Below, piece after piece: positions 35,801 through 36,603 of a DNA stretch of 64,000 nucleotides (position 1 is the first letter of the stretch; every line of letters begins with the position of its first letter). The position numbers and the translations under genes were made by a program. The notes beneath the pieces were generated by a model that made no database searches, was not told the origin of the DNA, and was given only the letters and a program-made list of their open reading frames with translations. Source of the stretch: an uncultured Gammaproteobacteria bacterium (GTDB lineage Bacteria > Patescibacteriota > Microgenomatia > UBA1406 > GWC2-37-13); NCBI GenBank assembly GCA_964459595.1, contig CAYWLV010000001.1:84056-148055 (forward strand), given 5' to 3'.

Positions 35801-35823
35801 TTACACACCTCGGAGGTGTGTAA
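35801..35823. repeat. REP palindrome, copy 1 (upstream of the RAYT gene)
   Basis: ttacacacct-cgg-aggtgtgtaa has a 10-bp stem and lies 107 nt upstream of the RAYT start. Confidence 0.8.
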
Positions 35824-35871
35824 AGAGTGCTAATCAAAAAATAAAGTTGATATGACAGTCTAAAACACCTT

Positions 35872-35893
35872 ATTTGCGGCTTATAAGCCGTTG
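35872..35893. repeat. Short palindromic motif, copy 2 (atttgcggcttataagccgttg)
   Basis: The core cggcttataagccg at 35877-35890 is a perfect palindrome. The motif is the reverse complement of 21627-21648 apart from one base. Confidence 0.6.
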
Positions 35894-35929
35894 CTTAGGT
35901 TTCAAAAGTTATGATAATAATGTGCAAGC

Positions 35930-36571
35930 ATGAAACGATATACATCATTTGCTTTAGGTGAAATTTATCATATTTGTAATAAAAGTATTTCAAACTATAA
36001 AATTTTTAGAAAAGAAGAATACTCACGACGGTTTTTGGATATTTGTAGTTTTTATAATCTGGAGGAAAAATATAAATATTCAGACTATTTGAGAAAAGAA
36101 AAAACATCTTTATTTCCAAATTTACTCCAATTATCAAGCCCAAAATATACAGTTCTATCATATTGTCTTATGCCTGATCATTATCACATCCTTATTCAAG
36201 CATCCAAAGATACGAATATTTCTAAGTATATTGGCACAATAGAAAACTCATATACAAGATTTTACAACTTGAGAAATAACAGAAAAGGCCCACTTTGGCA
36301 ATCGTCCTTTAGATGTGTACGAATTCAATCTAATGAACAATTACTTCATGTAATTCGATATATTCATCTAAATCCTGTAACGGCTAATTTAGCAACAAAT
36401 CCTCGCGATTGGGAGTTTTCATCTCATGCACTCTATTTACAACATACAATCTTGAATTCTATACCGTATATTTCAATAAAGTCAGTAGAAAACTTTGAGG
36501 CTTTTGTATTAAATAATGCAGATTATCAAAAAAGACTTAGAGTAATTAAAAGTGCCCTTAGGGACTATTAG
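35930..36571 (+). mobile_element. REP-associated tyrosine transposase (RAYT; IS200/IS605-type Y1 HUH transposase family)
   Basis: HUH motif CLMPDHYHILIQ and catalytic Tyr motif IRYIHLNPV. The gene is flanked by identical REP palindromes. Confidence 0.8.
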
Positions 36572-36582
36572 GAGGGCCCGCA

Positions 36583-36603
36583 ACACACCTCGGAGGTGTG
36601 TAA
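36583..36603. repeat. REP palindrome, copy 2 (12 nt downstream of the RAYT stop)
   Basis: acacacctcggaggtgtgtaa is in the same orientation as copy 1. Confidence 0.8.

Follow-up and report, generated by a model that had tools for sequence, protein, structure and literature searches.

A probable REPtron with in-frame repeat copies in a small Patescibacteria genome

Does a transposase-like gene that lies between two identical palindromes in a tiny bacterial genome form a system with those palindromes, are the three together an insertion sequence, or do they share a locus by chance? The question is raised by a 64,000-nucleotide stretch of DNA (hereafter the window; C1:84056-148055) from an uncultured bacterium whose genome, labelled G000, comprises 1.117 Mb in 21 contigs at 39% G+C. 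The gene (35930..36571, +) encodes a 213-aa protein resembling the REP-associated tyrosine transposases (RAYTs) that accompany repetitive extragenic palindromic (REP) sequences; we call it RAYT1 and the hairpin found on both of its sides REP1. Our answer, to which we assign a probability of about 85%, is that the locus is a REPtron: a single-copy, vertically inherited, TnpA-REP-like RAYT between two cognate REP hairpins in a Roizmanbacteria-like member of the Patescibacteria.

A homolog search returned more than 1,400 related proteins, with Candidatus Roizmanbacteria, Microgenomates and the Patescibacteria group as their named sources. Judged from these sequences, the host is an uncultured, tiny-genome, Roizmanbacteria-like Patescibacteria bacterium. 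The original prediction, made from the window alone, had suspected a member of the Candidate Phyla Radiation (CPR), and both the homolog names and the genome size of 1.1 Mb agree with it. To our knowledge, research on RAYT/REP systems is confined almost wholly to Proteobacteria, and in full-text literature searches that paired RAYT terms with CPR or Patescibacteria no description of such a system in these bacteria came up. The family is of interest for its gene-between-hairpins layout in ultra-small genomes: as these have almost no intergenic space, the repeats sit inside proteins. Below, other G numbers denote related genomes and L numbers loci of homologs; the genus comparison covers 13 genomes including G000.

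The RAYT1 gene and its flanking hairpins

The 213-aa open reading frame (ORF) and the two motifs that had drawn attention to it were reproduced at 35930..36571: PDHYHIL at aa 82-88, containing the HUH motif (H84-Y85-H86), and RYIHLNPV at aa 143-150, containing the catalytic tyrosine (Y144). Both align to Escherichia coli TnpA-REP (PDB 4ER8), and none of H84, H86, Y144, N148 and P149 varies among 42 aligned homologs. RAYT1 matches the Pfam model Y1_Tnp (PF01797) with an E-value of 9.2e-12. The NCBIfam RAYT model (NF047646, REP_Tyr_transpos) scores 77.5 bits against a cut-off of 80, whereas the IS200 model (NF033573) reaches 15 bits against a cut-off of 55. The best match in a PDB sequence search is 4ER8 (E = 2.5e-4), with ISDra2 TnpA ranking behind. 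The fold points the same way: with an AlphaFold2 model built from the 42 homologs (mean predicted local distance difference test score, pLDDT, 91.3), Foldseek returns 4ER8_A first (E = 9.3e-8, template modelling score 0.72 on the target), followed by the TnpA proteins of ISDra2, IS608 and IS200 at 1e-5 to 1e-3. The proposed RAYT-type Y1 identity is thus supported by the Y1_Tnp match, by a RAYT score well above the IS200 score, and by 4ER8 being nearest in both sequence and structure.

The flanking hairpins were located by exact matches to a 20-mer, CACACCTCGGAGGTGTGTAA, and by folding as single-stranded DNA. The 5' REP spans 35794..35834 (core 35804-35823) and the 3' REP 36574..36610 (core 36584-36603), both on the + strand; a third exact match in the window lies at 28664-28683. 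None of 100 dinucleotide-preserving shuffles contained the 20-mer. Identical 20-nt cores in the same orientation therefore bracket the gene, as had been predicted. The 3' core begins 12 nt after the stop codon (36572-36583), as predicted too, but 106 nt (35824-35929) and not 107 separate the 5' core from the ATG. The 5' REP is bipartite: its inner stem of up to 10 bp (TTACACACCT/AGGTGTGTAA) closes on the loop CGG and is separated by an internal loop from the outer stem TTAGC/GCTAA; it folds at -11.7 kcal/mol (z = -6.9). The 3' REP has an outer stem GGGCC/GGCCC, internal loops, an inner stem of 8 bp and the same loop, and folds at -12.6 kcal/mol (z = -4.5). The 10-bp stem with loop CGG that had been assigned to both copies consequently holds for the upstream one, whereas the downstream copy combines its 8-bp inner stem with the outer one. 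The general single-stranded shape of REP1 is an outer stem of 4-6 bp, an internal loop, an inner stem of 7-10 bp and a 3-nt loop.

This arrangement is not particular to G000. Among the 15 nearest CPR homolog loci (L001-L015) the majority have a palindrome common to both flanks, as do the orthologs L091 and L094. In homologs the hairpin centre lies about 80-160 nt upstream of the start codon on the 5' side and about 2-74 nt beyond the stop codon on the 3' side; in G000 the 5' centre is at about -120 from the ATG, and a cognate hairpin is present there in the orthologs and in most CPR homologs. No hairpin lies within the ORFs of these loci (L001-L015, L091 and L094), though one overlaps the stop codon, and direct and inverted arrangements both occur. 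When 25 flanking hairpins are aligned, the apical ACCT/AGGT is invariant. At the next three base pairs 11-13 sequences show a two-sided change and 0-4 are unpaired, resulting in a covariation score of 0.505, where shuffles give 0.13 and slid controls 0.06-0.14. The 25 hairpins were chosen as the best per flank, which inflates the percentage paired but leaves the covariation pattern unaffected. The hairpin-gene-hairpin arrangement, with covarying stems, is a trait of the family.

Between the 5' REP and the ATG lies a promoter-like module (35826..35893, +; ..GCTAAT..N..TGACAGTCTAAA..TTGCGGCTTATAAGCCGTTG), whose 5' end doubles as the outer stem of the 5' REP. It is kept upstream of the RAYT1 orthologs, and in G001 and G002 it precedes a different gene at the same locus. 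The sequence GCGGCTTATAA occurs 13 times in the G000 genome in a shared context of about 65 nt, mostly immediately 5' of genes. The pattern of this context is ACCGCTAAT .. T-rich .. aATCTAAA .. TTGCGGCTTATAAGCCGTTG; the window holds it at 35826-35893 (+) and at about 21590-21700 (-), and 11 more copies are found elsewhere in the genome. It precedes both RAYT paralogs of G000 as well as a four-helix-bundle gene of the window, and most likely represents a strong kind of promoter or operator in this lineage. An Rfam search of 35600-36800 matched no known RNA family, which indicates that hairpins and module are not a described RNA.

Position and inheritance of the locus

The interval between gyrB and rplL contains RAYT1 in at least four lineages (G000, L091, L094 and G006). 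The left neighbour in the window is gyrB (33811..35736, -; Pfam DNA_gyraseB, Toprim and HATPase_c), which probably starts at the ATG at 35736, and gyrB adjoins RAYT1 in the other three lineages as well. Identities to G000 fall together for both proteins: 69% for RAYT and 92.5% for GyrB in L091, 58% and 87.4% in L094, 57% and 87.2% in G006. A tblastn search of G000 returned one copy of RAYT1 at 100% and one paralog, RAYT2, at 42.5% identity (C13:17909-18541). Since the gene is single-copy, fixed in position and diverges in step with GyrB, RAYT1 behaves as a vertically inherited, locus-fixed RAYT and not as an insertion sequence. Single-copy, host-paced behaviour is also what Bertels et al. 2017 (PMC5581495) use to tell RAYTs from insertion sequences.

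It might be argued that the unit is nevertheless an autonomous insertion sequence of the IS200/IS605 type, in which the hairpins are the ends, the unit of about 0.8 kb transposes, and solo hairpins are scars or miniature derivatives. The layout invites this: a tnpA gene between direct subterminal hairpins is precisely the arrangement of IS200 and IS608, the HUH and tyrosine chemistry is common to both groups, and the RAYT1 fold matches the TnpA of IS608 and ISDra2 too. Moreover, the gene is missing from nine of the 13 genus genomes, five genus mates have a short and clean rplL-gyrB spacer, and the locus is a hot spot of variable genes. Members of this group (IS200, IS608, ISDra2) are multi-copy, however, whereas G000 holds one copy per paralog and no identical duplicates, and a mobile unit would not be expected at the same chromosomal position in four lineages with a divergence that scales with GyrB. 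The IS200 model falls far below its cut-off while the RAYT model scores 77.5 bits, and solo hairpins dispersed without the gene outnumber gene copies by 19 to 1 in G006. We therefore regard an insertion sequence as highly improbable, and take the absences to mean that a vertically inherited RAYT1 is often lost in the genus.

The surroundings of the gene vary. In both G001 and G002 the 5' REP and the promoter-like module persist, but they are followed by another gene; a trpR-like gene occupies the RAYT position there. Between the 3' REP and rplL the window contains a Mem_trans (AEC-type) permease gene (36621..37538, -; PF03547, 1.8e-19), which is missing from the locus in all relatives examined and represents variable cargo: L091 carries a 574-aa ORF at this place, and G006 and L094 carry nothing. 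As a whole, the REPtron locus behaves like a small variable island. In G007 (locus L066) the rplL-gyrB spacer, an empty RAYT site, holds a hairpin of CCCTAAA/TTTAGGG-like heptamer repeats, which belongs to the abundant heptamer element family already noticed in the window.

Two enzymes and their repeats in one genome

A genome-wide count of the 20-mer and its variants gives four exact copies, one with an inverted loop and one degenerate copy of REP1 in G000. Besides the two that flank RAYT1 (window positions 35804 and 36584), the third exact copy lies in miaA (28656..28686, core 28664-28683, -) and the fourth in the gene of a 384-aa membrane protein (C4:80888). The loop-inverted copy is intergenic, between dus and obg (C11:12690), and the degenerate copy lies in a miaB-like gene (C11:30459). 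The palindrome is thus not confined to the three sites of the window, and sister variants reach 18-19 copies in two genus mates; the REP1 family of G000 is tiny nonetheless (5-6 copies).

The miaA copy is part of the protein: the gene (28358..29314, -) gives a single continuous match to the IPPT domain (1.1e-47) that spans the REP, which is translated as ..SRL-THLRGVQ-EAV... The copy in the membrane protein gene shares with it both the reading frame and the orientation towards the gene (..PF-THLRGVQ-AQ..). The label 'extragenic' suits REP1 poorly, given that two solo copies out of three are translated in frame. Repeats inside conserved genes are found in miaA and the membrane protein gene, and also in carA, pgk, dus and the miaB-like gene (in G006 or G000). 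No doublets of the REPIN type are present in G000. The sole REPIN-like doublet noticed in the genus is L113 (G006 C3:35574-35620), where two REPs of the variants CAAACC.. and CACACC.. stand inverted, 30 nt apart.

RAYT2 forms a second REPtron (C13:17837-18673), located next to a tRNA gene and flanked by a palindrome of its own, REP2 (GTTAACTGCGGCAGTTAAC), whose two copies are mutually inverted. Near-copies of GTTAACTGCGGCAGTTAAC occur in carA (C8:8492, in frame) and at C7:23518. Within the genus RAYT2 is present in G000 and G010 only, with common synteny beside the tRNA gene, and the ortholog of G010 carries the REP2 variant GTTAACTGCGTCAGTTAAC. The REP2 palindrome is restricted to these two genomes (4 and 5 copies, against 0-1 in the rest of the genus). 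As each paralog has its own palindrome and REP2 accompanies RAYT2, the pairing of enzyme and repeat appears to be specific.

Abundance of REP1-type repeats tends to follow the gene as well. In a pattern search across the genus, G006 has 19 copies (18 exact) of the variant CAAACCTCGGAGGTTTG, against none with a control pattern, and G000 has its 5-6 copies of the variant CACACCTCGGAGGTGTG; both genomes are RAYT1-positive, whereas ten other genus mates have 0-3 copies. A third variant, GCCACCTCCGGGGTGGC, was searched for separately as it is too divergent for the genus-wide pattern. It occurs 19 times in G002, 15 of these being exact (e.g. C1:20797, C4:897, C4:7610 and C7:228631). The link between enzyme and repeat number is thus a tendency with one clear exception, G002, to which we return below.

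Variants, reused slots and the case for a REPtron

The same sites carry different repeats in different genomes. At three sites, namely the gyrB upstream region, miaA and the membrane protein gene, the palindrome reads CACACC..GGTGTG in G000, CAAACC..GGTTTG in G006 and GCCACC..GGTGGC in G002, while the proteins of these three genomes are merely 55-69% identical. Identity within a genome combined with difference between genomes at the same sites cannot be produced by descent alone. The copies must either be renewed on the spot or result from repeated hits at these sites. At the codon position of the miaA copy a perfect, genome-specific palindrome is found in G006, G002, G008 and G004, and a decayed one or none in the other genus mates. 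The insert is missing from six genomes of the same order, and a seventh, G013, has a CGTC-type hairpin at this place.

A comparison of G006 with G000 extends this pattern to further genes. At least seven G006 copies lie inside genes with a clear G000 ortholog, counting in-gene copies only in such frames, and at all seven positions G000 has a palindrome whose centre is no more than about 10 nt (3 codons) away. Its nature differs from slot to slot: REP1 in miaA and in the membrane protein gene, a degenerate REP1 with a REP2-like hairpin beside it in the miaB-like gene, REP2 in carA, a CGTC-type hairpin (ATCCCGATGAAAATCGGGAT) in dus, and unique palindromes in pgk and in the seventh gene. Five of the seven slots hold a strict hairpin, defined by a perfect stem of at least 6 bp; the palindromes of carA and the miaB-like gene are imperfect, with one mismatch each. 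By comparison, only 2-3% of positions lie within 15 nt of a strict hairpin, and the slot hairpin is mostly the sole one per kb or so. At a rate of 3%, the probability that at least five of seven trials give a strict hit is near 5e-7 by rough estimate.

The slots contain signs of both modes of renewal. In pgk and the seventh gene the sequence differs between G000 and G006 at equal length, which favours replacement in place. Repeated insertion, which would go into the few permissive loops that a gene-dense genome offers, is favoured by two other cases: in the miaB-like gene a REP1 and a REP2 hairpin stand side by side, and the miaA segment of G002 is 4 aa longer. A tentative idea, to our mind possible but rather unlikely, is that housekeeping genes hold fixed in-frame hairpin slots that are overwritten repeatedly by whichever family is currently active (RAYT1-, RAYT2- or CGTC-type), with HUH enzymes targeting existing hairpins and swapping the stem-loop in place. 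If true, such swapping would explain the identity within genomes, the variants between genomes and the same-length replacements without indels. For sites filled by different repeats, Di Nocera et al. 2013 (PMC3733652) noted a single comparable case: recB of two Xanthomonas species carries different REPs at nearly the same position. What most deserves follow-up is the reuse of slots by three repeat families: orthologous slots with differing variants in sister genomes are a natural experiment on whether REPs are replaced or re-inserted, and the system offers a small, well-behaved enzyme of 213 aa and a putative substrate of 33 nt.

By homology with TnpA-REP and IS608, RAYT1 would bind the folded REP on single-stranded DNA. 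Tyr144 would cut at the foot of the hairpin and form a 5'-phosphotyrosine intermediate, with His84 and His86 holding a metal ion, and transfer and rejoining of the ends might then copy or move REP units. The other parts of the system in G000 are three solo copies of a unit of about 33 nt (11 codons) and a degenerate one, of which two solo copies and the degenerate one are tolerated in frame, in loops of housekeeping proteins (miaA, the membrane protein and the miaB-like protein). Activity of the enzyme, or repeated insertion, may keep copies identical within a genome and different between genomes; the direction of cause would then run from enzyme to repeat.

The opposite view is that the hairpins are host elements under selection, such as mRNA stabilisers, terminators or protein-binding sites, with the Y1 gene adjacent by chance and no mobilisation involved. 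It would account for slots being conserved in the gene-less genomes G002, G001 and G008, for the 19 copies that G002 maintains without a Y1 gene, and for unrelated palindrome families filling the same slots, as though any hairpin serves. Yet no T-run follows the hairpins, and about half of them are within coding sequence, a place in which termination would do harm. Nor does this view fit with identical 17-20-mers per genome whose variants differ at orthologous sites, with each paralog's own palindrome being limited to genomes that have the paralog, or with the miaA insert being wholly absent from the six same-order genomes. We give it very little credence indeed.

Set against described systems, RAYT1 and REP1 correspond to the REPtrons of Nunvar 2010, Ton-Hoang 2012 and Di Nocera 2013. 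Known REPtrons include E. coli yafM/rayT (PDB 4ER8) and those of Stenotrophomonas and Pseudomonas (Nunvar 2010, PMC2817692; Bertels 2017, PMC5581495). The locus has in common with them an HUH/Y1 enzyme nearest to TnpA-REP, its own hairpins on both sides, a single-copy, syntenic and vertically inherited gene, one REP per paralog, and co-variation of REP and enzyme. The low number of repeats resembles groups 1 and 4 of Bertels 2017 (PMC5581495), which have about 12-14 copies of the flanking 16-mer. In comparison with the E. coli enzyme (165 aa) RAYT1 is longer, with extra helices at about aa 29-57 and 166-211.

Several observations weigh against a REPtron or set the locus apart from known ones. 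Apart from the host, Patescibacteria, the protein scores 2.5 bits below the curated NF047646 cut-off. The RAYT-specific motif NP(L/V)(R/K)xG, which directly follows the tyrosine (Nunvar et al. 2010, PMC2817692), is reduced to NPV in RAYT1 (Y144-IHL-N148-P149-V-T-A-N), the R/K and the G being absent. Flanking REPs are inverted in described RAYT loci (Nunvar et al. 2010, PMC2817692), whereas those of RAYT1 are direct, both having the CGG loop and the TAA 3' foot on the + strand. REP1 lacks a GTAG or CGTC tag at its foot (the flanks are ..GCCTTA-/-TAAAG.. and ..CGCAA-/-TAAATGGCC..), and where GTAG occurs in hairpins of some homologs it is inside the loop only; instead of the GTAG head of classical REPs, REP1 has the invariant apical ACCT-N3-AGGT. 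The 5-6 copies in G000 are far below the numbers of classical REP systems, REPIN doublets are lacking in that genome, and about half of the copies are in frame. In G006 the two copies flanking the RAYT gene are the least perfect of its REP family. Finally, searches of G002 with the protein and with the Pfam model, in an assembly of an estimated 95% completeness, found no Y1/RAYT gene. This would mean a very recent loss of the gene, a position within the missing 5%, or a homogeneity of REPs that does not depend on the gene. Orphan REPs after loss of the RAYT have been reported for E. coli strains (Di Nocera 2013, PMC3733652).

Intragenic REPs and co-variation of RAYT and REP are already described. 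With Rickettsia palindromic elements and the intragenic GTAG/CGTC REPs of Di Nocera 2013 (PMC3733652) the repeats discussed here share in-frame insertion into housekeeping genes and a tolerated loop peptide. They differ from these in that a cognate transposase is identifiable beside two of the copies, and that slots are reused in seven of seven tested genes by three families.

The third palindromic family of G000 has 19 copies of the form (C/T)GTC-AT(T)CCCnnn-N4-nnnGGG(A)AT-CCAG (e.g. C11:11883, C2:103508, C6:31169, C10:10123-12924 and C14:12255-12316). It has no dedicated enzyme evident in G000, and it fits the CGTC-1 class of Di Nocera 2013 (PMC3733652), to which Neisseria dRS3 and Rickettsia RPE-6 belong. 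About ten of its copies lie within long open frames, for instance in frame in dus.

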